Shown: positions 7,665-63,101, counted from the first letter of the stretch. The stretch is 64,000 nucleotides of DNA from Bacteriovoracaceae bacterium UBA4573 (GCA_002387735.1 DGKJ01000053.1:4129-68128), one strand, 5' to 3'. Made by a program: numbers and translations. Notes: a model not told the origin generated them from the sequence alone.

Positions 7665-8756
7665 GTGATGGGTCTGCGATCAAAAATTTGTATCCTTGGC
7701 TTGCTCGTAGTTTTCTCGAGTGCTGCGGCGTATGCCGACGAAAAGAGATCGAATTTTTCGAAAATCGATAAAAATTCTACGTTGGGGTGGCTGAAGTACC
7801 CGACCGAACCCTCGCCCGAACGCCGAGGGGAAAAAAAGAATGAAGTGATTCGAAAATACCAACTGCCGCCCAAAACGAAAAACAATGTCTACAAGGCAAT
7901 GCTACCAGCCTTCTATCAAGACCTTGATTTTGACGCTTACTACCGATTTACTTTTGAGGACCTTGTTTGGGCGACTTTGGCGATTGAAGGTGAGACCGAT
8001 TGCGATGGGCGAGAACATTCAGCCGCGGTGTTGTGGACCATCGCGCAGCGAGGCGGAATTAATCCAAAACGCCGATTGAGTAACGATAAAAGTTACGCGG
8101 ACGCCTTGATAGAGTACTGTCAGCCAATTAAGCCGAAATGGGCCAATCCCAAAAAAGTCTGTGCCGGTAAAAATAAGGATGAAGTCGTGTGTGATCCAAA
8201 AGTTATTGCACGGCGAAAAAAGGGAATAAAGTTGGGCAAGGCTATTTTAAAGGCAGGCTCCTTTGACCTCGAAGCTAAAGAGCTGCAAACACAACTGCGC
8301 CGCCACGGATTGACGAAAGCGGATTTTAAATCGTTTATAAGACCGCAATGTCTTCAGATCGCTTACGATTTCGTAACCGGAAATCTTCCGAATCCGGTTC
8401 CGGGCGCTACCGAATTCGCGCAGCACTGCAAGCAGGGTAAACAACACGATTTTTTAGTTAAATTTCAACGTAAAGACAAAGTGATTCATTCAAAAAGTAG
8501 GCGCAGGTGTCCGTCGAAGAAGTCGAAGAAAAAAGGGGGAAATCTCTTTTTTACCGACGAAGTATTGTTGGGGAAAACTCGCTATTCGACAAAAAACTGG
8601 GACGGTTCTGAAATAAAAATTATTAGCCCGTCGGGGAGTGAATCGCGGGTCGCCTCGAGAATTCAAGAGACCGACGAACCCAAACGAGTCGCCGAAGTCA
8701 TACCAGTCTCAAACGAAAATAGAAAAGACCGGGACGCCAGCATGGGAGTGAATTGA
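7665..8756 (+). CDS. Hypothetical exported protein with a basic C-terminal tail
   Basis: 363 aa with an N-terminal signal peptide (LGLLVVFSSAAAYA). The C-terminus is Lys/Arg-rich. No confident family assignment. GTG at 7665 or ATG at 7668 could be the start. Confidence 0.4.
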   Translation: MMGLRSKICILGLLVVFSSAAAYADEKRSNFSKIDKNSTLGWLKYPTEPSPERRGEKKNEVIRKYQLPPKTKNNVYKAMLPAFYQDLDFDAYYRFTFEDLVWATLAIEGETDCDGREHSAAVLWTIAQRGGINPKRRLSNDKSYADALIEYCQPIKPKWANPKKVCAGKNKDEVVCDPKVIARRKKGIKLGKAILKAGSFDLEAKELQTQLRRHGLTKADFKSFIRPQCLQIAYDFVTGNLPNPVPGATEFAQHCKQGKQHDFLVKFQRKDKVIHSKSRRRCPSKKSKKKGGNLFFTDEVLLGKTRYSTKNWDGSEIKIISPSGSESRVASRIQETDEPKRVAEVIPVSNENRKDRDASMGVN

Positions 8757-21105: not shown

Positions 21106-21183
21106 TGGGGTGATCGAGGGGTCTCGAACCCCCGACCTTCGGGACCACAACCCGACGCTCTAACCAACTGAGCTACGACCACC
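21106..21183 (-). tRNA. tRNA-His (anticodon GTG) with genomically encoded G-1 and 3' CCA
   Basis: Folded manually from the reverse complement GGTGGTCGTAGCTCAGTTGGTTAGAGCGTCGGGTTGTGGTCCCGAAGGTCGGGGGTTCGAGACCCCTCGATCACCCCA. The 7-bp acceptor stem is preceded by the extra G-1:C73 pair typical of tRNA-His. D-stem GCTC/GAGC, anticodon stem TCGGG/CCCGA with loop TTGTGGT, and T-loop TTCGAGA are all present. Confidence 0.9.
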
Positions 21184-54418: not shown

Positions 54419-56125
54419 TCACCAACTTCGGGGGTCCGGATTATCAAGGCATGGATCTTTACCGTTGCTGCTAGCATGGGCGGCCCACTGAGCCATGGTA
54501 CGACCGGCCCAATGATCGTCCACGTCGCTTGACCAATTGTTTTTTCGAGCCAGTTCTAATTCTTGTTCGATTGATCGTACGGTCCACTGGTAGAGTCCGG
54601 GAGTAGCAGGGTCGGGCGAAGGTTCGCCCCAGGCGACCCAACGCACGCCTTGATCTTTCCAATATTTGCGAGGCGCGTGAATCGGGTTGTGAGTGCACCA
54701 GACAAAGCCGCGAGCTTTGGCTTTATATAGGTATAATAGCTCACTGCCACGCGAGCGAACTGTCATGACGACAAACGGGTGGCGTTCTGGAAACACTTGT
54801 TCATTCCAACCATGTAAATAATCAGGGGCCCTGGGGTCATTGATGCGCGCGGCGTAGGCTAGGTAAGGAGGGACTCCTTTGCGATAAGCGGTGCCGCACA
54901 CGGCAGTTACTAATACTGCGAGAGCAAGCGCCAACAGTCGGTGATGCTTATCAATGGTACCTAAAACGACTTCTGCGAGGAGAGCGAGTGCGATACCTGT
55001 CGCCAGTGCACGCCCTACGTCGAAGGGTAGAGCGTAGTATTCGTGTACGATGTAAACGGCCCAGAATAGAAACACGAACACAAAGAGCGCAATGCCATAG
55101 GGCACGGCGACTTGGGCGAATTTAAGAGCCCAAGCTTTTACGGGTCGACGAAAAAAAATCGAAAGTACAGCGAGGGCGGGTAATACGAGAAAAATGCCCG
55201 TTTGCTGGGCCCATTTGAGCAAATTGGAAGTGAAAAACTTTGGCTCAAAACGTTCACTCCAGTTCCCAAAATACCAACGAGTCGCTCTGGGCCCAGTATG
55301 CAATATCCAAGGTAGGTCCGAAGCTTGACCGAGTACGTGGCCCCAGGCAAGCCACCCCACTACGACCAGACTTCCGGTTCCCAGCGCCAATATGCCGCGA
55401 ACACTTGGTGCAATTCCCTGAATTCGCCAGCGAATGGCAAGAAAGACTGTCCAAAAAACAGCGAAAAATGCGAAGCCCTGCGGTTTGTGTACTCCGGTCA
55501 TCGCCCAAGCCGATCCGGCTATCAGAGGCCACACGTAGCGAGCCATTCCAGCTTTAGACCCCGCTTCGGTCCGCACACTCCCATAGAGTGCGACCAGAGC
55601 GAAGAACAACATTCGATTTTCGACCATTGTATACGTTGCATAGCGAAGCCAGAGCTCATCACACGCGAGTAAAAATACCGAAACCGCGCTCCCAATCAAT
55701 GCGAATGGAGTTGCAATCCCTACCAGCTGGGCGAGCGCAAAAGACAATGCGCCCAACACCAGTAGGCTTGCTGCCGAAAACCAAATGCTCACAGATTTTC
55801 CGATTTTTTCAACCGCGCCTTCGCATTCGGTTCCGCCCAGACCACGAGCAAGCACTCCCTGCAGCCATTCAAAACCCGTGTACTCGAGATTGAATGGATT
55901 GTTTCCGAAGTGAATTTGCGGTCCCTTTAAAATCGAATGAGAGGGATTGTGGCAATACATTCGTATGATTCCGGCGGTAAAACCCTGGCGCTCAGCGCTT
56001 CTTCCGCCAGAAGGCCGTTCAAAAGCTAAGGGGAGAGTAAGAAAAAGAAAAACCGCAGCACAACCCCAAGTCCAAAGTTGAGTGGCGAACCAAAGTTTGC
56101 GGTGTTCTTGATTGGAGTCTTCCAA
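54419..56125 (-). CDS. GT-C-fold polytopic membrane glycosyltransferase, paralog A (polyprenyl-P-sugar dependent, ArnT/PMT/ALG-like)
   Basis: 568 aa with ~11 TM and a C-terminal soluble domain. A DELW motif (LLACDELWLRY) in an early loop parallels DEIW in the adjacent paralog. Confidence 0.5.
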   Translation of the reverse strand: MEDSNQEHRKLWFATQLWTWGCAAVFLFLTLPLAFERPSGGRSAERQGFTAGIIRMYCHNPSHSILKGPQIHFGNNPFNLEYTGFEWLQGVLARGLGGTECEGAVEKIGKSVSIWFSAASLLVLGALSFALAQLVGIATPFALIGSAVSVFLLACDELWLRYATYTMVENRMLFFALVALYGSVRTEAGSKAGMARYVWPLIAGSAWAMTGVHKPQGFAFFAVFWTVFLAIRWRIQGIAPSVRGILALGTGSLVVVGWLAWGHVLGQASDLPWILHTGPRATRWYFGNWSERFEPKFFTSNLLKWAQQTGIFLVLPALAVLSIFFRRPVKAWALKFAQVAVPYGIALFVFVFLFWAVYIVHEYYALPFDVGRALATGIALALLAEVVLGTIDKHHRLLALALAVLVTAVCGTAYRKGVPPYLAYAARINDPRAPDYLHGWNEQVFPERHPFVVMTVRSRGSELLYLYKAKARGFVWCTHNPIHAPRKYWKDQGVRWVAWGEPSPDPATPGLYQWTVRSIEQELELARKNNWSSDVDDHWAGRTMAQWAAHASSNGKDPCLDNPDPRSW

Positions 56126-57574
56126 TTAATGTTCCTCGCTCAAAAAGGTGTGAATCTCATCGAGAGTGCAGCGATAAACGGCACCTTCATCTTCGACGGG
56201 CGAAAAAATAGTCCGCATCGGAATGCGGCGTTCTTTACACGGAGGATTTTCAGATCGACTAGTAACAACGTAATTGTAGTCGTGCGGATCAAGTCTTTTT
56301 CGTCGCAGATGATCACGGTCTATGGCGTAGGAATAGGGCAAGGGGCGGTGAAAGGTGTAATGGCCGCCCGAATAAATTCCATTCCATCCGTAAACAAGTA
56401 AACCGCGAACGTCAGTTTGGGCGCCCACCCAGGTTTCGAGTACTGAGGGAGTTTGATAATCATTCCAGCGAGTTTTTTTAGATCCACGCCAGGCGGCGAA
56501 CGATAAAAATAGCGTTAAAATTAAAACAAGAACTTGTCGGCGATACTGCCATTTCGTTGTTTCAAACCAGTATTGTAACACGAGGCCCGCTAGAGCCGCT
56601 CCCAGAACCGCGATGGGGTAGAAATAACGGTATTCTTTGTGGCCGAATAGAGTGTGGAGCAATAAAAGTGAAAGTGTGGCTCCCCAATACGGACGTAATT
56701 TTTTTGGTGAAAATGCGACTGCTAAAAAAAATAAAACGAATAGCGGTTCAGTCATGAATCGCCAGAGAAGTTCGAAGGCAAAGTAAAACGGTGTGACTCC
56801 ATCGCGGGCGGGCTTACCATCTATCAAATCAGCGTAGGCGTAGTGCAAAAACGGGCTGGTCCACTGGCCGTTGACCGCAGAGTTCAATAGCAAATCAAAT
56901 AATACGAAACCTAACCCCGCGACGAAAGCCCACTGAAATTTTCGGTATTGGCGGGTGAATAAAAACATTAGGCCAATCCAACCCAAAATTACGACGAAGG
57001 GGTATCGTAACGCACAGCTTAGTGCGATTAAACACAATCCCGCCATCAATTTACTGGGGCTTCCTTGGTCGAGCCAAACGAGTCCTACGAGCAGTAGCGG
57101 AAGCGCCAGCGCCGCAAGTTCGCCAAATGTTGAGTAACGTAAAAATTCTGGCGTAAGAAAAACGAAAAGGCCCGCCAACCAAGGCAGAGAACGCAAACCC
57201 AGTTTTCGTGCCACGGTCAAGATGAAATAACCCTTAGCCGCAAAGGTCACAGTGGCAAGCAAGATGCGCATAAGTGGCAAAACCACCTGACCGTCTGTGA
57301 GCCCCAGAGCATGGAATACACGCAGGATGGATCCGACCAAAAGTGGGGCTAACCAGCTTCGAACGCCTTGAACCCAGTCGACATCGAGTTCCCCGACGCG
57401 GTAAATCCAAGAGTAGGCTGGATTGAATGTTACCCAAATCTCGTCGACCCAGGCGCGGCTTTGAAAACAAAACGCGATCAAAACTTGCGCTGCGAATCCA
57501 AAAAGGCACACCGCTGCAAAGATGCGACTGCGTGATTGAAGCATATTTCTCAGAAATAATTTAATTGCTGCCAC
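56126..57574 (-). CDS. GT-C-fold polytopic membrane glycosyltransferase, paralog B (PIG-B/ALG9-like mannosyltransferase signature)
   Basis: 482 aa with 10 or more TM. An early-loop WVDEIWVTFNP motif resembles the DE-containing first-loop motif of Dol-P/Und-P-sugar-utilising GT-C enzymes. Its stop abuts the start of paralog A. Confidence 0.5.
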   Translation of the reverse strand: MAAIKLFLRNMLQSRSRIFAAVCLFGFAAQVLIAFCFQSRAWVDEIWVTFNPAYSWIYRVGELDVDWVQGVRSWLAPLLVGSILRVFHALGLTDGQVVLPLMRILLATVTFAAKGYFILTVARKLGLRSLPWLAGLFVFLTPEFLRYSTFGELAALALPLLLVGLVWLDQGSPSKLMAGLCLIALSCALRYPFVVILGWIGLMFLFTRQYRKFQWAFVAGLGFVLFDLLLNSAVNGQWTSPFLHYAYADLIDGKPARDGVTPFYFAFELLWRFMTEPLFVLFFLAVAFSPKKLRPYWGATLSLLLLHTLFGHKEYRYFYPIAVLGAALAGLVLQYWFETTKWQYRRQVLVLILTLFLSFAAWRGSKKTRWNDYQTPSVLETWVGAQTDVRGLLVYGWNGIYSGGHYTFHRPLPYSYAIDRDHLRRKRLDPHDYNYVVTSRSENPPCKERRIPMRTIFSPVEDEGAVYRCTLDEIHTFLSEEH

Positions 57575-57646
57575 AAGTCATTTTCCGCATGTTTAATGAG
57601 AGATGGGCCCATTGCATCATATCGGAGTTGATGAATCAATTGATCG

Positions 57647-58837
57647 ATGCTAACCCCTGTCTTTATGTCATCATCTTCGCCAATCGAACTCTCGATTGTA
57701 ATGCCCTGCCTCAATGAAGCCGAAACGCTCGAGGCGTGCATTAAAAAAGCTAAGAATTTTTTGGAGCGACACCAGATCGCCGGCGAAATTGTTGTTGGCG
57801 ACAATGGATCGACCGATGGGTCGCAACAAATCGCTGAACGATGCGGAGCTCGTGTAGTAAGCGTTCCGGTCAGGGGCTACGGCGCTGCACTTTATCATGC
57901 CACCCAAGCGGCTCGCGGCAGCTACGTCATCATGGGAGACTCCGACGATAGTTACGATTTTTCGGGGCTAATGCCGTTTGTCGAAAAACTGCGCGAAAAT
58001 TACGATCTAGTTATGGGGAATCGATTTTCCGGAGGCATTAAAAAAGGGGCAATGCCTTGGAAAAATCGGTACATCGGAAATCCTGCTTTGAGTGGAATCG
58101 GGCGGTTACTTTATAAGATTCCAGTTCGCGATTTTCACTGTGGACTACGTGGGTATTCAAAAAGCGCCTTTCAAAAAATGGACTTACATACCACTGGAAT
58201 GGAATTCGCCTCTGAAATGGTCATTAAAGCTTCGCTCAAAGGGATGCGCATAGTGGAAGTGCCGACCACCTTGCAGCCAGATGGGCGCTCGCGAGCACCT
58301 CATTTGCGCCCTTGGCGAGACGGCTGGCGCCACCTGCGCTTTATGTTGCTGTTTTCGCCCCGTTGGTTATTTTATTATCCGGGATTGGCGCTCATTTTAT
58401 CGGGCTTGCTGTTGGGAAGTTTGCTTGTCACTGGCCCGCTGGACATTGGTGGGATTCGACTAGATATTCACGCGCTGTTTTATTCCGCGATTGCAGTGAT
58501 AATCGGTTTTCAATCGGTTAGCTTTTATGCGTTAGCCCAAATTTCAGCAGTGCACAAAGGTTTGTTACCGGCCTCGAAGCGAATGCAGAAATTTTTAGAT
58601 CACTTTGTGATCGAAAAAGGTTTGGTCCTAGGCTTGTTGTTGTTCTTGGCTGGAGTCGTAGGGCTCCTGGTCGGTGTTGAGCAGTGGGGCCATTCCGAGT
58701 TTGCTAATATTGAACCGCGCCAAATGATGCGAATAGTGATTCCGTCAGGGTTGGCCGCCACGTTGGGTTTTAATATGATTCTTGCGAGTTTTTTCATGGG
58801 CGTCTTGCAGCTGCCGACGCGAAGGGAGCCAAAATGA
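57647..58837 (+). CDS. GT2-family polyprenyl-phosphate glycosyltransferase (ArnC/DPM1/GtrB-like) with C-terminal TM anchor
   Basis: IVMPCLNEAETL, VVGDNGSTDGS and DxD GDSDDS are present, with 2-4 C-terminal TM helices. Confidence 0.8.
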   Translation: MLTPVFMSSSSPIELSIVMPCLNEAETLEACIKKAKNFLERHQIAGEIVVGDNGSTDGSQQIAERCGARVVSVPVRGYGAALYHATQAARGSYVIMGDSDDSYDFSGLMPFVEKLRENYDLVMGNRFSGGIKKGAMPWKNRYIGNPALSGIGRLLYKIPVRDFHCGLRGYSKSAFQKMDLHTTGMEFASEMVIKASLKGMRIVEVPTTLQPDGRSRAPHLRPWRDGWRHLRFMLLFSPRWLFYYPGLALILSGLLLGSLLVTGPLDIGGIRLDIHALFYSAIAVIIGFQSVSFYALAQISAVHKGLLPASKRMQKFLDHFVIEKGLVLGLLLFLAGVVGLLVGVEQWGHSEFANIEPRQMMRIVIPSGLAATLGFNMILASFFMGVLQLPTRREPK

Positions 58838-60381
58838 AAGTCACCCTTGTTCAACCGCCGGCGTTAGTTGCGGTCGATAATTACTCCACCATTACGTTGC
58901 CCCCGCTAGGGATTGCCTACATTGCGGGCTATCTGCGAAGTCACCACCACGAGGTTACCGTGGTCGATGCGGTCGGTGCGGCCGTCCGAAAACTGGAACC
59001 ATGGCCCAAACGTAAGAAACGCCTTATTCAAGGTTTGAGTTTTGAAGAAATTTTGGAACGCATTCCCAGTGACACTCAGGTGATTGGTGTGACCTGTATG
59101 TTCACGCATGCCTGGCCAATGGTCCGTGATTTGTTGGCTGCGCTCAAAGAACGCTTTCCTAAGGCTTGGCTTGTTTGCGGAGGCGAACACATCACGTCGA
59201 TGCATCCAACCGTGCTCGAGCAGACGCCTGTTGATTTCTGTGTTCTGGGTGAGGGTGAGTATACCTTTCGAGAATTAATCGATTTGCTGGGCGCCGGCAA
59301 TCTTGAGCAGGCGCGCACAATTCAAGGCGTGGCTTACAAGAGTCAAGCGGGGCAAGTTGTTAAGAATGAACGCCGTCCACGCATTAAAGAAGTAGATAAC
59401 ATTCCTTGGCCAGCTTGGGATTTGATGGACCCCATGGCCTACAACGAAGCTGAGATTTATCAGGGGCCCCAAAGCAACGGAAAAACTATTCCGATGTTGG
59501 CCACTCGCGGATGCCCGTACCGCTGTACCTTTTGTTCCTCGCCCAACATGTGGACCCAACTGTGGAAGCCACGTGATCCGATCGACGTAGTTAACGAGAT
59601 CGAGTCGTACATGAAAAAGTACGGTGCTGCCGACTTTCAGTTTCAGGATCTTACTGCAATCGTAAAACGCGATTGGATACTAACTTTTTGCAAAGAAATA
59701 TTACGACGCGAATTAAAGATCACTTGGACTTTGCCTGCCGGTACGCGGTCTGAAGTTGTCGACGACGAATGCGCGAGTTACCTCATGCGTTCCGGATGCC
59801 AACATATTACTTTCGCTCCGGAGTCGGGTAGCCCAAGAATACTCGATCGCATTCAGAAACGAGTCGATTTAAACAGTCTCGAAGATTCTGCCAAGGCTTG
59901 TTTACGCAACGGCATGAAAGTCTGCCTATTTATTATCGTCGGATTTCCCTTCGAGGAAAAATCGGACATTCGTGCCACTTTCAAGTGGTTGCGCCACATG
60001 GCGCGTATTGGAGTTCATGAAGTGGCGACTGCTACTTTTGTGCCACTCCCTGGAACGCAGCTTTTTGGTGAGACTAGCGCGATTTCAAAAATCGAAGTCG
60101 ATGACGAGTACTGCCACTGGATGACTGCGGCTACCAGCATGTTGACGGTACGTTCGTGGAATCCTCGTTTTAGCGATCGCCAGATACTTTTTTATAAGCT
60201 CTACGCCATGGCTCAGTTTTACGCTGTATCGTATTTCTTTTATCCGAGCCGGGCATTTCGATTGATTCGCAATTTTATTTTGCACAAACAGGAAACCAAA
60301 GTAGACCGCGTTTTGCGCGAAATGGTGAACAAAACAGCAATTGTCTTAAAAACAAAGTTACTGTCAAAAAAAGCGTCATAG
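58834..60381 (+). CDS. B12-binding-domain radical SAM enzyme (class B; candidate methyltransferase)
   Basis: An N-terminal Rossmann-like B12-binding region is followed by the radical SAM cluster motif CPYRCTFC (CxxxCxxC). ATGA start/stop overlap with the GT2 gene. Confidence 0.8.
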   Translation: MKVTLVQPPALVAVDNYSTITLPPLGIAYIAGYLRSHHHEVTVVDAVGAAVRKLEPWPKRKKRLIQGLSFEEILERIPSDTQVIGVTCMFTHAWPMVRDLLAALKERFPKAWLVCGGEHITSMHPTVLEQTPVDFCVLGEGEYTFRELIDLLGAGNLEQARTIQGVAYKSQAGQVVKNERRPRIKEVDNIPWPAWDLMDPMAYNEAEIYQGPQSNGKTIPMLATRGCPYRCTFCSSPNMWTQLWKPRDPIDVVNEIESYMKKYGAADFQFQDLTAIVKRDWILTFCKEILRRELKITWTLPAGTRSEVVDDECASYLMRSGCQHITFAPESGSPRILDRIQKRVDLNSLEDSAKACLRNGMKVCLFIIVGFPFEEKSDIRATFKWLRHMARIGVHEVATATFVPLPGTQLFGETSAISKIEVDDEYCHWMTAATSMLTVRSWNPRFSDRQILFYKLYAMAQFYAVSYFFYPSRAFRLIRNFILHKQETKVDRVLREMVNKTAIVLKTKLLSKKAS

Positions 60382-60407
60382 TAAAAACAACGTTGGGGGG
60401 ATTTCGA

Positions 60408-61703
60408 ATGAAAAAGTTAGGACTACTTGGAGTCGTAGCGTTGATGAGCGCCTCTGGGGCGGCTCACGCAGTTGATACTTCGATGATCAAGTTTGAAGGG
60501 AATGCCCGGCTGAAGTATCAGTCCGACAATCGAGTCGATTACCAGAACAACCGTCGTTATACTCTATTGCGCGTTCGTCCTGGCATGACTGTCACGCCTA
60601 ATTCAAAAACTTCGCTTGTGATTGTTCCGCAGTTTGCAAAGGCCTTAGGGGAACCTACTCATATTAGTTCTTCAACAACTGCCAACACAGAAGTGTCAAC
60701 AAGCGGCAGTAGTTCGCTTGGTGCCCACGGTGAATTCGGTGTTTACGAGGCCTATGTCGGTTGGCAACCCTTGGGTTGGAGTGAGTTTTATTTTGGTCGC
60801 CAATCACTCAAATACGGTGACGGGCTGGTGATCGGCCAAGGGAACTGGGGCAATCATGGTCGTAGTTTCGATGCATTGAGAGCGCGGGCAAAGTATGGTT
60901 TGGGTTGGAGTGACTTATTGTTTTCGAAAATCAAAGAATACAACACGTCTGATTCTTCGACCATCGAGCGTGGCGACAAAGATCTCTGGGCTTTGTACAG
61001 TTCTTGGGATTTAGGACAGTATTTCAAAAATGTTGATCCCTATGTGTTTTACCAACGCGATCGATCGTCTTTTAATAGCGCGGTCAAAAGTGACCGCTAT
61101 ATTGCGGATCATCTGTGGACGGTCGGAGCCCGTCTCAGGTCGGACGTGGAGAAATTCGACTATCGTTTAGAGGTAAACAAACAATACACCTATTACACCG
61201 GAAAAGACGGTGTGCAGCTCAACGGAGATCAACAAAACGTAGAATTAGGTTACAACTTCGATTGCGAATGCAAACCGAGAGTGGCGGTAGAGTGGTTTAG
61301 GGCTTCCCGAAATTATCGGGAACTTTATCCGACAACTAACGAATTTCTTGGACGCGCCGACTTGTTTGGCCGAAGAAATATTATGGGATTCGGAATCAAG
61401 ACGTCGGGCTCGGCGGGGGATGATTGGAGCTGGGGCTTTGATTACTATAATTTTTCTCGCGAACGGAGCAGTCACACCGCTTATCGCACCAACGGAACCA
61501 CCTCGCTTGGTGGCGCGCAGTTGGGGGTTTCTAGGTTTTTGGGCCATGAGTTTGATCTAGGTTTGAAATACCAGGCTAACAAAAACCTGGATTTTAAGGC
61601 CGGTTATAACCACTTTGTGTCGAGCAAAAACTCCACGCTTCGCAAGTTGAATGGGTACACCCACGCCGGAATGGCGTTTTTGGCAATGGAGATGAAGTAC
61701 TAA
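60408..61703 (+). CDS. Outer-membrane beta-barrel protein (porin/alginate-export-like), putative
   Basis: Signal peptide MKKLGLLGVVALMSASGAAHA. Alternating beta-strand pattern, many Y/W/G, ends ..MEMKY. ATG 60408 with GGGGGG RBS is preferred. Confidence 0.45.
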   Translation: MKKLGLLGVVALMSASGAAHAVDTSMIKFEGNARLKYQSDNRVDYQNNRRYTLLRVRPGMTVTPNSKTSLVIVPQFAKALGEPTHISSSTTANTEVSTSGSSSLGAHGEFGVYEAYVGWQPLGWSEFYFGRQSLKYGDGLVIGQGNWGNHGRSFDALRARAKYGLGWSDLLFSKIKEYNTSDSSTIERGDKDLWALYSSWDLGQYFKNVDPYVFYQRDRSSFNSAVKSDRYIADHLWTVGARLRSDVEKFDYRLEVNKQYTYYTGKDGVQLNGDQQNVELGYNFDCECKPRVAVEWFRASRNYRELYPTTNEFLGRADLFGRRNIMGFGIKTSGSAGDDWSWGFDYYNFSRERSSHTAYRTNGTTSLGGAQLGVSRFLGHEFDLGLKYQANKNLDFKAGYNHFVSSKNSTLRKLNGYTHAGMAFLAMEMKY

Positions 61704-61871
61704 GCACCTGCCTTAACTTCAGGGTGCGTGGTGCGGGAGAGGTGGGCCCTTCTTCGAGGGCCTGCCAATTTGTCTTTAAACCGTCTAAAACTTAGACACT
61801 TTTCGTTTAGGCTAGCCTGGTTTGCTGCAGGGCTCCGACTGTGGTACCTCGTTTGCAACTTAGGAGGGTCT

Positions 61872-63101
61872 ATGAAGCACGCTTATCGTGGTTTTCGCGG
61901 TTCCTTAACGCTTTGTGCGGTTCTCGGTTTGATGGGGCCGTCGCTGGTTGTTCGCGCCCAGGAAGCTGATCCGGTCGTAACCCCGATTCTCGAAGCAGAC
62001 CCCGCGCCCGTCGCAGAGGCAGTGGCAAAGAGCCCCAAAAAGAAAAAGAAGGCGAAAAAACCGAAAAAATCGAAACGTAACACTGGCGTAGCCAGCGTGG
62101 AAATTCCACCCTCTGAACCTGCTGCGCCGGATGAGCCCGCGCTCAAAGACGCGACACCTCAAGAAATTCAGAAAATTTGTGCTGTGATGGAGCGAAAGAA
62201 ACGAGCCTCCTACGCGAAGTTCGAATCCGGTAAGGAACGGTTTGAGACTGAACGCAAATTGTACATGAAGAAGTTGGAGAAAGACTTAAACGCTGCATTG
62301 GCCCGCCCACAGCGGCTATTTACTAAGGCGATTGCGACTCTGTCTGAGGGCACAGATACTTCGAAAAATCAGGTTTCAGAGTTGGTAGAAATAATTCGAG
62401 CTTACGCTCACCCGGAATGGTTTGAAGGTGAAAATTCGTCATCTTATCGTGAGTTCGGTGAATTCATCGTCGAAGAAATTGCGATCATTGAAAAACAAGT
62501 TAGAAAAAATATTGATTCGAAATACTTTATCGATAGCGATGCACGATTAAAAGAGCAGGGCGTGCCATATCTTCGTGGCGAAACGGTCGATGTTCGTTTT
62601 TATCCGGCTGCCAAGTCTATCGGGGTGTCCGCGTGCGCTATGGATATCAATGATTTGTTGAAAGCCTATTTGAAAGGTGACACCAAGCCCCTCGAAACTT
62701 CGTTCTGGTGGAAAGGCTTCTCACAGCATCAAGAATTCAGGCCGTTGTGTATCAGAGTTGACCTCCCCGTATTAGACTTCGATCCGACTAAGGTTGATTT
62801 AAAGAGCGAGTTTAAAAAACGCTTGGAAAGCGCAATCAGCGAGGTTTCCGCCTGGACGCCGCCACCAGCTTATTACGACTCACTCGAAAAATATTTGGAT
62901 CATGTTTTGCCGAAGGTCTGTAGACCAAAGTCTGTCGAAAGTACGGAAGTATCCATTACGCCCGAGCCTGTGGAAACTCAGGCCGCCGGGGAAACACCAG
63001 TCGATGAGGCTACTCCGAACCAAGGCGAACAGCCGACGCAGGACAGTAGTGAAACCGGTGAAACTTCTGACAATAGTTCCGGTGATGACGTCGACCTATA
63101 A
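61872..63101 (+). CDS. Exported protein with Lys-rich (KKKKKAKKPKKSKR) segment and acidic Ser-rich C-terminus
   Basis: ATG 61872 with AGGAGGG RBS gives MKHAYRGFRGSLTLCAVLGLMGPSLVVRAQEA as signal peptide. No family recognised. Confidence 0.4.
   Translation: MKHAYRGFRGSLTLCAVLGLMGPSLVVRAQEADPVVTPILEADPAPVAEAVAKSPKKKKKAKKPKKSKRNTGVASVEIPPSEPAAPDEPALKDATPQEIQKICAVMERKKRASYAKFESGKERFETERKLYMKKLEKDLNAALARPQRLFTKAIATLSEGTDTSKNQVSELVEIIRAYAHPEWFEGENSSSYREFGEFIVEEIAIIEKQVRKNIDSKYFIDSDARLKEQGVPYLRGETVDVRFYPAAKSIGVSACAMDINDLLKAYLKGDTKPLETSFWWKGFSQHQEFRPLCIRVDLPVLDFDPTKVDLKSEFKKRLESAISEVSAWTPPPAYYDSLEKYLDHVLPKVCRPKSVESTEVSITPEPVETQAAGETPVDEATPNQGEQPTQDSSETGETSDNSSGDDVDL

Follow-up and report, generated by a model that had tools for sequence, protein, structure and literature searches.

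Class-B radical SAM (rSAM) enzymes such as MgmA, TokK, TsrM, OxsB, and GenK carry an N-terminal Rossmann-like B12-binding domain followed by an rSAM core with a CxxxCxxC motif, and GenK and GenD1 are C-methylases of aminoglycoside sugars. The same B12-type domain occurs in AprD4, which nevertheless is not known to bind cobalamin and whose structure entry names it a radical SAM 1,2-diol dehydratase, not a methylase. In moenomycin biosynthesis, MoeK5 C-methylates a sugar after its attachment to the lipid. MoeK5 has been placed among the Csp3-methyltransferases (PMC12931638) and termed a moenomycin-pathway methylase (PMC11214058), thus providing a precedent for a B12-type rSAM C-methylase in a phosphoglycolipid pathway, although it belongs to secondary metabolism in Streptomyces and is likened to the protein studied here by description, not by sequence. 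In the HpnI-HpnK-HpnJ branch of hopanoid synthesis, HpnI puts GlcNAc on the lipid and the rSAM protein HpnJ is proposed to contract the sugar ring, the same contraction being proposed for calditol synthase (Cds) on archaeal lipids; the shared logic is that a glycosyltransferase adds a hexose to a membrane lipid and an rSAM enzyme then remodels it (PMC13459092). A compact locus pairing a polyprenyl-P sugar synthase with a GT-C transferase is typical of the three-component periplasmic glycosylation systems (GtrA/GtrB/Gtr*, ArnC/ArnD/ArnT, and the polyprenyl-P-ribose systems with their auxiliary epimerases), where donor-altering auxiliary enzymes are an established theme; polyprenyl-P-sugar-modifying precedents in these systems are DprE1/E2 and an SDR epimerase (PMC11127046). 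A characterised B12-type rSAM enzyme in LPS or polysaccharide pathways was found neither in two 2026 reviews nor by full-text searches of the literature, in agreement with a preliminary description of the present locus, and in the literature searched, partnership with a polyprenyl-P glycosyltransferase and GT-C proteins is described for no characterised class-B member.

The window, a 64,000-nucleotide stretch from Bacteriovoracaceae bacterium UBA4573 (GCA_002387735.1 DGKJ01000053.1:4129-68128), contains two divergent operons with the following features.

54419..56125, minus strand: candidate PMT-like GT-C glycosyltransferase (PF02366), 568 aa, polytopic membrane protein, second gene of the divergent operon
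56126..57574, minus strand: GT22/Alg9-like GT-C glycosyltransferase (Glyco_transf_22, PF03901), 482 aa
57575..57646, no strand: divergent intergenic region of 72 bp between the GT-C operon and the GT2-rSAM-barrel operon
57647..58837, plus strand: GT2 polyprenyl-phosphate glycosyltransferase of the DPMS/GtrB/ArnC type (PF00535), 396 aa, four C-terminal TM helices
58834..58837, plus strand: ATGA overlap of GT2 stop and rSAM start, coupling the two genes
58834..60381, plus strand: radical SAM protein with B12-binding domain (class-B architecture, Pfam), 515 aa
60408..61703, plus strand: AlgE-like outer-membrane beta-barrel (PF13372), 431 aa, about 18 strands, signal peptide
61741..61766, plus strand: terminator-like hairpin (consensus scan), 11 pairs (7 G-C), tentative 3' end of the GT2-rSAM-barrel transcription unit

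We consider it roughly an even call that 54419-61766 constitutes a self-contained Gtr/Arn-type module for periplasmic glycosylation with the rSAM protein as its donor-tailoring enzyme. The GT2 protein, a match to PF00535 at 92.5 bits (Pfam) with about four TM helices at its C-terminus, has its best NCBIfam matches, all under cut-off, in AglJ, a Dol-P-hexose transferase, and PpgS, and its closest solved structures are P. furiosus DPMS (5mlz), GtrB (sll0501), and ArnC; it corresponds to the polyprenyl-phosphate glycosyltransferase component of a three-component system, and the GT2_TM_C domain (PF26629) is present in the GT2 orthologs adjoining rSAM homologs. The same locus also supplies the GT-C transferase of such a system. 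The 482-aa protein, with about seven TM segments, matches PF03901 at 86.4 bits (cut-off, 23.8), a GT22/Alg9-like family whose donors are polyprenyl-P-sugars, while the 568-aa protein, with about eight hydrophobic segments, matches PMT only marginally (23.6 bits; cut-off, 22.7) and has no homolog adjoining the gene of any rSAM relative. The window differs from the three-component systems in having two different GT-C genes, a co-transcribed barrel, and, as its auxiliary enzyme, what would be an rSAM protein, which is unprecedented there. It differs further in the dedicated flippase: no GtrA/SMR/MATE-type gene was detected among the unassigned open reading frames of at least 80 aa at 52-64 kb. 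The gene for a flippase serving the module could lie at another place in the genome. In the divergent intergenic region, which extends to 90 bp if the GT2 start is Met7, a promoter scan found no strong sigma-70 match.

The architecture of the rSAM protein was as had been described from the DNA, with both domains and the CPYRCTFC motif borne out. A B12-binding domain (PF02310; residues 21-148; 64.9 bits; cut-off, 32.1) is fused to a Radical_SAM core (PF04055; residues 223-386; 64.7 bits; cut-off, 29.5), in which the cluster motif C227-x3-C231-x2-C234 is invariant across 16 aligned homologs, as are GGEH and GEGE. The protein thus belongs to the radical SAM superfamily and has the domain organization of class B. 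Its AF2 model (pLDDT, 89.8) found MgmA, AprD4 (second-best), TsrM, OxsB, and TokK as top Foldseek matches, with E values from 1e-24 to 1e-17 for MgmA, TsrM, OxsB, and TokK, although identity to the solved members is only 14-20% and the protein lies under every curated NCBIfam family cut-off. Judged by its sequence, it is a member of an uncharacterised but widespread subfamily found in many phyla at 38-90% identity. That the enzyme binds cobalamin is not certain, since AprD4, a near structural match, is a dehydratase built with the same domain. The window contains no cobalamin riboswitch.

Methylases (Sden_1168, MgmA, and HpnR) and non-methylases (BchE, HpnJ, and AprD4) both occur among the nearest families, and the NCBIfam neighbours also include the RiPP enzyme ApyD and the ladderane-lipid rSAM. 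The C-methylation originally proposed is therefore one of several possible chemistries, given that non-methylating BchE, HpnJ, OxsB, and AprD4 are all among the nearest families or structures. Methyl transfer is plausible, and HpnJ-like ring contraction or AprD4-like dehydration is also possible. The enzyme may accordingly play the same pathway role while rearranging the lipid-linked hexose without methylating it, either through an HpnJ/Cds-like contraction to a carbocyclic cyclitol with an acid-stable linkage or through 1,2-diol dehydration to a deoxy sugar as by AprD4. HpnJ (TIGR03471) gives one of the better NCBIfam matches (129.5 bits over residues 91-499) and is a detectable homolog, AprD4 and ring-contracting OxsB are structurally near, a PIG-L deacetylase gene lies near one homolog (L087), and the hopanoid pathway offers an exact precedent in gene logic for a glycosyltransferase followed by an rSAM enzyme. 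We nevertheless regard rearrangement as unlikely, if deserving of serious attention, since these matches fall far under the cut-offs (577.6 for HpnJ; 69 bits versus 500 for the AprD4 family), hopanoid genes are absent from the neighbourhood, and characterised B12-domain rSAM enzymes are mostly methylases (PMC13459092; PMC12931638). HpnJ itself was rejected as an assignment on its score and on the absence of hpn genes among the window neighbours; the GT2 protein also gives no HpnI match, and the modified lipid would be polyprenyl phosphate, which carries the sugar transiently and is not an end product as in the hopanoid and Cds cases. That the protein is BchE, the anaerobic Mg-protoporphyrin IX monomethyl ester cyclase, is virtually impossible, even though BchE is the top NCBIfam match and the JGI name for several homologs: the 169 bits are about one-third of the equivalog cut-off (TIGR02026; 481.35; 481 when rounded), the hosts are non-phototrophic lineages, and chlorophyll genes are absent from all examined neighbourhoods.

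The link between the rSAM and GT2 genes is evident at their junction (58830-58840, aaaATGAaag), where the rSAM gene, with its ATG at 58834, overlaps the GT2 gene, with its stop TGA at 58835-58837, by 4 nt, as the preliminary description had noted. Operons often show ATGA overlaps, and the overlap by itself is unremarkable; it gains meaning because the same junction recurs in a relative. The ATGA-coupled cassette is found again in L113/L114 (rSAM, 82% identity; GT2, 78%), with the L113 junction at 8644-8647. In the Planctomycete locus L003, the two genes adjoin (rSAM, 63%; GT2, 36%), and they are more widely spaced in L086 (two genes apart) and L085 (6 kb). The claimed association with envelope glycosylation genes held up in that rSAM homologs often co-occur with GT2/GT-C genes. 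Polyprenyl-P-type GT2, GT-C, or WecA-like genes are present in about 13-14 of the 17 close neighbourhoods, and 7/8 of the GT2 proteins adjoining close homologs are of the polyprenyl-P glycosyltransferase type. The share of GT2 falls from 35/329 at 1-2 genes from the rSAM gene to 12/384 at a distance of at least five genes (Fisher p=6e-5), and that of large multi-TM proteins, a class that also takes in transporters such as an SSF symporter in L007, from 44/329 to 17/384 (p=2e-5); these counts are not independent, because many loci come from related Planctomycetota with shared synteny. Flanking the rSAM gene are PMT/PMT_2-type GT-C genes, or genes for large orphan proteins of about 7-12 hydrophobic segments, in L001, L005, L008, L085, L086, L087, L092, L093/L117, L096, L099, and L116. 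The partner GT-C families vary by locus while the rSAM protein keeps 55-63% identity across phyla, which fits action on the donor, not the acceptor.

Three of the 17 close homologs (L115, L116, and L007) have no recognisable glycosyltransferase nearby. In L007 the neighbours are NamZ, flavodoxin, and HD genes; L115 has MoxR, transglutaminase, and fatty-acid genes, with acyl-CoA and thioesterase genes nearby; and L116 (58% identity), with a second B12-rSAM, a SPASM rSAM, a halogenase, and JmjC/PhyH hydroxylases, resembles a natural-product or RiPP cluster. Together with the ApyD and ladderane-lipid neighbours in NCBIfam and host phyla known for unusual lipids, L115 and L116 could suggest that the enzyme is unrelated to glycans and modifies a membrane lipid or peptide, its position among envelope genes reflecting a general clustering of membrane functions. 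We find this quite unlikely: the ATGA-coupled GT2 pair is kept at 82% identity, GT2 enrichment drops with distance from the rSAM gene, the neighbouring GT2 proteins are specifically polyprenyl-P synthase types and not generic GT2, and even in L116 the gene directly downstream encodes a protein of 629 aa and about nine hydrophobic segments. Other neighbourhoods point to a soluble, not lipid-linked, substrate, in that the rSAM gene lies among nucleotide-sugar enzymes. In L001 it sits between genes for a TylC3-type C-methyltransferase (Methyltransf_13/14), a class I methyltransferase, a cupin, an SDR, and epimerases/dehydratases; Polysacc_synt_2, DegT, and CMP-sugar synthetase genes come after it in L093/L117; and rmlA/B/C-like and DegT genes are near it in L113. 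The enzyme would then act on a nucleotide sugar, on the model of GenK and GenD1, and GT2 would load the modified sugar onto the lipid carrier. This order of events also appears unlikely, because no nucleotide-sugar genes accompany the module within the window and the tightest recurring coupling is to a membrane-bound GT2, not to soluble sugar enzymes.

Translational coupling to a lipid-carrier sugar synthase thus suggests that the rSAM enzyme probably tailors a lipid-linked sugar, and on genomic grounds it probably modifies a lipid-linked (or nucleotide) sugar donor later used by envelope glycosyltransferases. By homology, GT2 would transfer the sugar of a nucleotide-sugar donor to polyprenyl phosphate on the cytoplasmic side. 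The coupled rSAM enzyme would cleave SAM reductively at its [4Fe-4S] cluster, and the resulting 5'-deoxyadenosyl radical would take hydrogen from an unactivated carbon of the sugar, then bound to the lipid carrier or possibly still to the nucleotide, a step suggested by the gene coupling and the conserved neighbourhoods. The sugar would then be modified, most likely with a methyl group from methylcobalamin to give a putative C-methyl sugar, after which the polyprenyl-P-sugar would be flipped and the GT22-like and PMT-like GT-C proteins would pass the sugar to an acceptor in the envelope, perhaps a glycan, lipid, or protein. It is possible, although we lean against it, that the subfamily represents the first radical SAM enzyme to edit a polyprenyl-phosphate-linked sugar in bacterial periplasmic glycosylation. 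If so, a C-methylated, deoxygenated, or carbocyclic envelope sugar would be expected in Oligoflexia, Planctomycetota, Omnitrophota, Elusimicrobiota, Nitrospinota, and other largely uncultured phyla, extending the Gtr/Arn paradigm by a radical-based tailoring step.

The outer-membrane barrel predicted downstream of the rSAM gene is also present. Its product matches Alginate_exp (PF13372) at 60.3 bits (cut-off, 25.2), and its AF2 model (pLDDT, 78; about 18 strands) is closest, among solved structures, to the alginate export porin AlgE (3rbh; E 8e-16; TM 0.70), followed by MOMP and OprD/Occ porins. It thus shares the 18-stranded PF13372 fold of AlgE-type exporters, although identity to AlgE is 12-13%. 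The proposal that the barrel exports or accommodates the modified glycan, GT2, rSAM, and barrel forming a functional triplet, draws on the 26-nt gap free of terminator-like sites, on the hairpin at 61741-61766 directly 3' of the barrel gene (a tentative terminator, because such sites occur in this region at shuffle expectation), and on the AlgE-like fold with eleven invariant or nearly invariant arginines, which suggest an electropositive pore as in a polyanion exporter. Barrel and rSAM genes remain neighbours in the nearest relative, L118 (rSAM, 90%; barrel, 55%), and only there, the remaining 116 loci having no barrel homolog even where the rSAM protein is 82% or 81% identical. The barrel family is small (39 matches), a 36%-identical homolog lies between two MFS transporters beside molybdenum-cofactor genes, alginate-type synthase and periplasmic scaffold genes are absent at the locus, and GT-C products are attached in the periplasm, making a dedicated porin unnecessary. 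An export role is therefore improbable. From the preliminary interpretation, the enzyme architecture, the GT2 coupling, and the link to envelope glycosylation stand, whereas the conserved triplet with the barrel does not. The co-transcribed barrel is probably a lineage-specific, anion-selective channel and not an obligatory part of the pathway. Its mechanical open reading frame spans 60393-61703 (TTG 60393), and the true start is likely the ATG at 60408, behind a GGGGG Shine-Dalgarno-like run.

The genes between 54.4 and 61.8 kb form a stand-alone module outside any O-antigen cluster, since the genes upstream (39-52 kb) are unrelated housekeeping genes. The B12-binding/radical SAM protein (rSAM) lies between a polyprenyl-phosphate glycosyltransferase (GT2) and an AlgE-like outer-membrane barrel, with two divergent GT-C genes on the other side of GT2:

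57647-58837, plus strand: GT2, 396 aa, stop TGA at 58835-58837
58834-60381, plus strand: rSAM, 515 aa, start ATG at 58834 in an ATGA overlap with the GT2 stop
61728-63101, plus strand: 457-aa ORF from GTG 61728, likely true start ATG 61872
61741-61766: terminator-like hairpin
Opposite strand: GT22/Alg9-like GT-C protein, 482 aa (Pfam, 86.4 bits)
Opposite strand: PMT-like GT-C protein, 568 aa (Pfam, 23.6 bits, marginal)

The sequence around 58.8 kb (aaaATGAaag) confirmed the overlap of the rSAM and GT2 genes reported in the preliminary description. GT2 is separated from the opposite-strand GT-C genes by 72 bp; because its L113 homolog aligns from residue 7 onward, the true start of the window GT2 may be the second ATG (Met7, 57665) rather than 57647, and the divergent intergenic gap would then measure about 90 bp. 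An Rfam scan detected no cobalamin riboswitch anywhere in the 64-kb window, the sole match being a tRNA at 21109-21182 (minus strand).

Pfam profile matches to the B12-binding (residues 21-148; 64.9 bits) and Radical_SAM (residues 223-386; 64.7 bits) domains, together with the cluster motif C227-P-Y-R-C231-T-F-C234, bore out the domain composition first proposed for rSAM, namely a B12-binding fold with a CPYRCTFC cluster. The three cluster cysteines, GGEH (116-119), and GEGE (139-142) were invariant in an alignment of 16 homologs (42-80% identity). The alignment-based AlphaFold model was confident (pLDDT, 89.8; pTM, 0.89), and its Foldseek neighbors were MgmA (a cobalamin rSAM glutamine C-methylase), AprD4 (a diol dehydratase), TsrM, OxsB, and TokK, a placement that gives rSAM the class-B architecture. 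As this group comprises methylases, ring-contracting enzymes, and a dehydratase, homology does not settle the chemistry of rSAM, and methylase and non-methylase matches were not separable in the structure search. The cut-off of no NCBIfam model was reached: the scores were 169 bits for BchE (cut-off, 481), 139 for the Sden_1168 P-methylase (575), 135 for ApyD (750), 130 for HpnJ (578), 117 for the MJ_1487 family (251), and 112 for the ladderane-type lipid rSAM (360). rSAM belongs to a known superfamily but an unassigned subfamily.

An identical rSAM sequence was present in the protein database from an Oligoflexia MAG, along with full-length homologs (40-82% identity) from Planctomycetota, Omnitrophota, Elusimicrobiota, Verrucomicrobiota, and Thermodesulfobacteriota. 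When one genome was scanned for each species, at least 593 candidate relatives emerged, among them Nitrospina sp. 32_T5 and Planctomycetota DHS20C15 (38-41% identity); the best 80 matched rSAM at 38-59% identity across essentially its full length and extended the distribution to Nitrospinota, Binatia, Myxococcota, Acidobacteriota, and alphaproteobacteria. Several homologs, including the database proteins P0015, P0017, and P0022, are named 'BchE' or 'YgiQ' at source. Because the scores are below threshold and the hosts are non-phototrophic, the labels 'anaerobic magnesium-protoporphyrin IX monomethyl ester cyclase' and 'YgiQ' look like over-annotations, and the subfamily analysis corrects these public names. 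For rSAM itself, a BchE identity was rejected on both score (169 versus 481 bits) and gene context.

Homolog loci (numbered with the prefix L) were annotated with a per-locus codon-usage gene caller, and 17 independent neighborhoods of close rSAM homologs (48-82% identity) were compared using Pfam tables and Pfam scans. Single-linkage clustering of the neighbors lumped GT2 genes and epimerases together, and most of what it brought out was synteny of Planctomycetota housekeeping genes such as Der, ArgJ, PSD, and TrkH; it was replaced by seeded phmmer classes. The ATGA-coupled cassette recurred in L113 and L114 (rSAM, 82%, and GT2, 78% identical to those of the window), where GT2 carries GT2_TM_C, overlaps rSAM by the same ATGA, and sits within a polysaccharide cluster with rmlA/B/C-like, GT4, and DegT genes. 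A GT2_TM_C gene was located directly upstream of rSAM in the planctomycete locus L003 (rSAM, 63%; GT2, 36%) and 6 kb upstream in L085 (rSAM, 81%), and a four-TM GT2 was found two genes upstream in L086. The best NCBIfam match of 7/8 GT2 neighbors was a polyprenyl- or dolichyl-phosphate glycosyltransferase (AglJ, Dol-P-hexose transferase, PpgS, ArnC, PgfS), and the best solved relatives of the window GT2 were DPMS, GtrB, and ArnC. In all 98 usable loci taken together, 35/329 genes one or two positions from rSAM were GT2 matches, against 12/384 genes five or more positions away (Fisher p=6e-5); for large multi-TM proteins, a class that takes in transporters too, the figures were 44/329 and 17/384 (p=2e-5). 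These counts are not independent, as many loci are from related Planctomycetota.

PMT/PMT_2-type GT-C genes were found beside or near rSAM in L001, L008, L087, L092, and L096, and WecA-like PF00953 genes in L008 and L009. In L005, L085, L086, L093/L117, L099, and L116, rSAM is adjoined by orphan proteins that have about 7-12 hydrophobic segments. Some of them are detectably related to PMT_2 proteins, and Pfam searches at E values up to 1 returned no useful match, only weak PMT_2 hits for two. The distance enrichment, the recurring ATGA cassette, and the GT-C neighbors upheld the expectation that rSAM homologs co-occur with GT2/GT-C genes. The link of rSAM to GT2/GT-C glycosylation is real and conserved, and the conserved unit is a polyprenyl-P sugar synthase plus rSAM, usually with GT-C enzymes nearby. 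Counter-examples were L007 (rSAM, 55%), with NamZ, flavodoxin, and HD genes, and L116 (rSAM, 58%), whose cluster contains a second B12-rSAM, a SPASM rSAM, a halogenase, and JmjC/PhyH hydroxylases; in a third, L115 (rSAM, 62%), no glycosyltransferase was found within 7 kb.

This arrangement is that of three-component systems of the Gtr/Arn type; they make a lipid-linked monosaccharide in the cytoplasm, which is then flipped and transferred by a GT-C enzyme. For the rSAM module, the architecture, coupling, and co-occurrence are observed directly, and all functional steps are inferred. In Gtr/Arn-type systems, auxiliary enzymes such as DprE1/E2 and an SDR epimerase alter the lipid-linked donor (PMC11127046). 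rSAM would likewise act on the sugar donor rather than the acceptor, a possibility favored because the GT-C partner families differ between loci while rSAM is strongly conserved. C-methylation is the commonest class-B reaction, and AprD4 offers a precedent for sugar deoxygenation. MoeK5, of the moenomycin phosphoglycolipid pathway (PMC11214058), is listed as a Csp3 methylase (PMC12931638). For a radical SAM enzyme that contracts the ring of a lipid-linked hexose, precedents exist in calditol synthase and in the HpnI-HpnK-HpnJ branch (PMC13459092). The gene context of rSAM in L001 and L117 suggests a nucleotide sugar instead of a lipid-linked sugar as the substrate. In these Omnitrophota-type loci (L001, 5577-12078; L117, 9023-14757), rSAM lies among deoxy- or nonulosonic-sugar enzymes (including a cupin, SDR, TylC3-type C-methyltransferase [Methyltransf_13/14], class I methyltransferases, TylF O-methyltransferase, DegT, and CMP-sugar synthetase), and the sugar made there is probably heavily methylated.

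Class-B radical SAM enzymes are among the largest pools of unassigned enzymology, and we know of none that has been linked to the assembly of bacterial envelope glycans. Two reviews from 2026, on B12-dependent and on lipid-modifying rSAM enzymes, name no substrate of the polyprenyl, undecaprenyl, lipopolysaccharide, or polysaccharide kind, and full-text literature searches turned up no paper connecting radical SAM or B12 enzymes with polyprenyl, LPS, or polysaccharide pathways, in agreement with the earlier statement that no characterized rSAM of this type is known in LPS or lipid A pathways. If a radical SAM enzyme does tailor the sugar in a periplasmic glycosylation module, that step would be new to a known system. 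Since the subfamily (55-63% identical across phyla) occurs alongside polyprenyl-P sugar synthases and GT-C transferases, our data point to an unrecognized, widespread sugar modification. In many lineages that are still uncultured, it would affect surface antigenicity, recognition by phages and predators, and the stability of the envelope. With its two genes, the GT2-rSAM cassette is compact enough to be tested directly in a heterologous host.

In the initial proposal, a C-methylated envelope sugar or lipid would be exported or accommodated by the barrel. This interpretation is partly supported: the GT2/GT-C link is conserved, the barrel triplet is lineage-specific, and C-methylation is plausible. 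The barrel ORF is listed from TTG 60393, and ATG 60408, with GGGGG 8 nt upstream, opens a typical signal peptide, leaving a 26-nt gap to the rSAM stop. The protein matches Pfam Alginate_exp (60.3 bits), and its AlphaFold model (pLDDT, 78) has roughly 18 strands, with AlgE as the best solved match (E 8e-16; TM, 0.70), followed by MOMP and OprD/Occ porins. In the first 117 loci, tblastn gave no match to the barrel, to either GT-C protein, or to the secreted proteins that flank the module, and a dedicated search found only 39 barrel homologs. In the locus of the closest (L118; 55% identical), the barrel begins 26 nt after an rSAM of which the C-terminal 361 residues are present (90% identity to the window rSAM), and next comes a homolog of the 457-aa downstream protein, at 40% identity. 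The rSAM-barrel order, kept in this nearest relative, is lost at 82% and 81% rSAM identity. The barrel is read as a co-transcribed but non-obligatory partner. In L119 (4507-8592), a 36%-identical barrel lies between two MFS_1 transporters, beside MoeA/MoaE molybdenum-cofactor genes and a nitronate monooxygenase, neighbors that suggest a small-anion porin role for the family; 11 arginines, invariant or nearly so across it, suggest that the pore is anion-selective.

Several minor observations were also made. With a start at GTG 61728, the 457-aa ORF would overlap the terminator-like hairpin; the internal Met at 61872 opens a signal peptide, and the mature protein contains one Lys-rich stretch as well as tails rich in Pro, Thr, Ser, and Glu. 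Speculatively, its product could be an acceptor of the PMT-like enzyme. Toxin-antitoxin-like small genes (a PemK toxin and an HVO_A0114/TumE pair) occur in the polysaccharide clusters of L113 (7021-7404 and 11254-11846) and L114 (8109-8761), and their insertion hints that the cassette region is mobile or variable. In L116 (1304-15554), the rSAM homolog overlaps the second B12-rSAM (501 aa) by 4 nt, and the pair adjoins the SPASM rSAM, another rSAM, a tryptophan-halogenase-like flavoenzyme, methyltransferases, and PhyH and JmjC/cupin hydroxylases; this locus resembles a cluster for a natural product or RiPP and not one for glycans.
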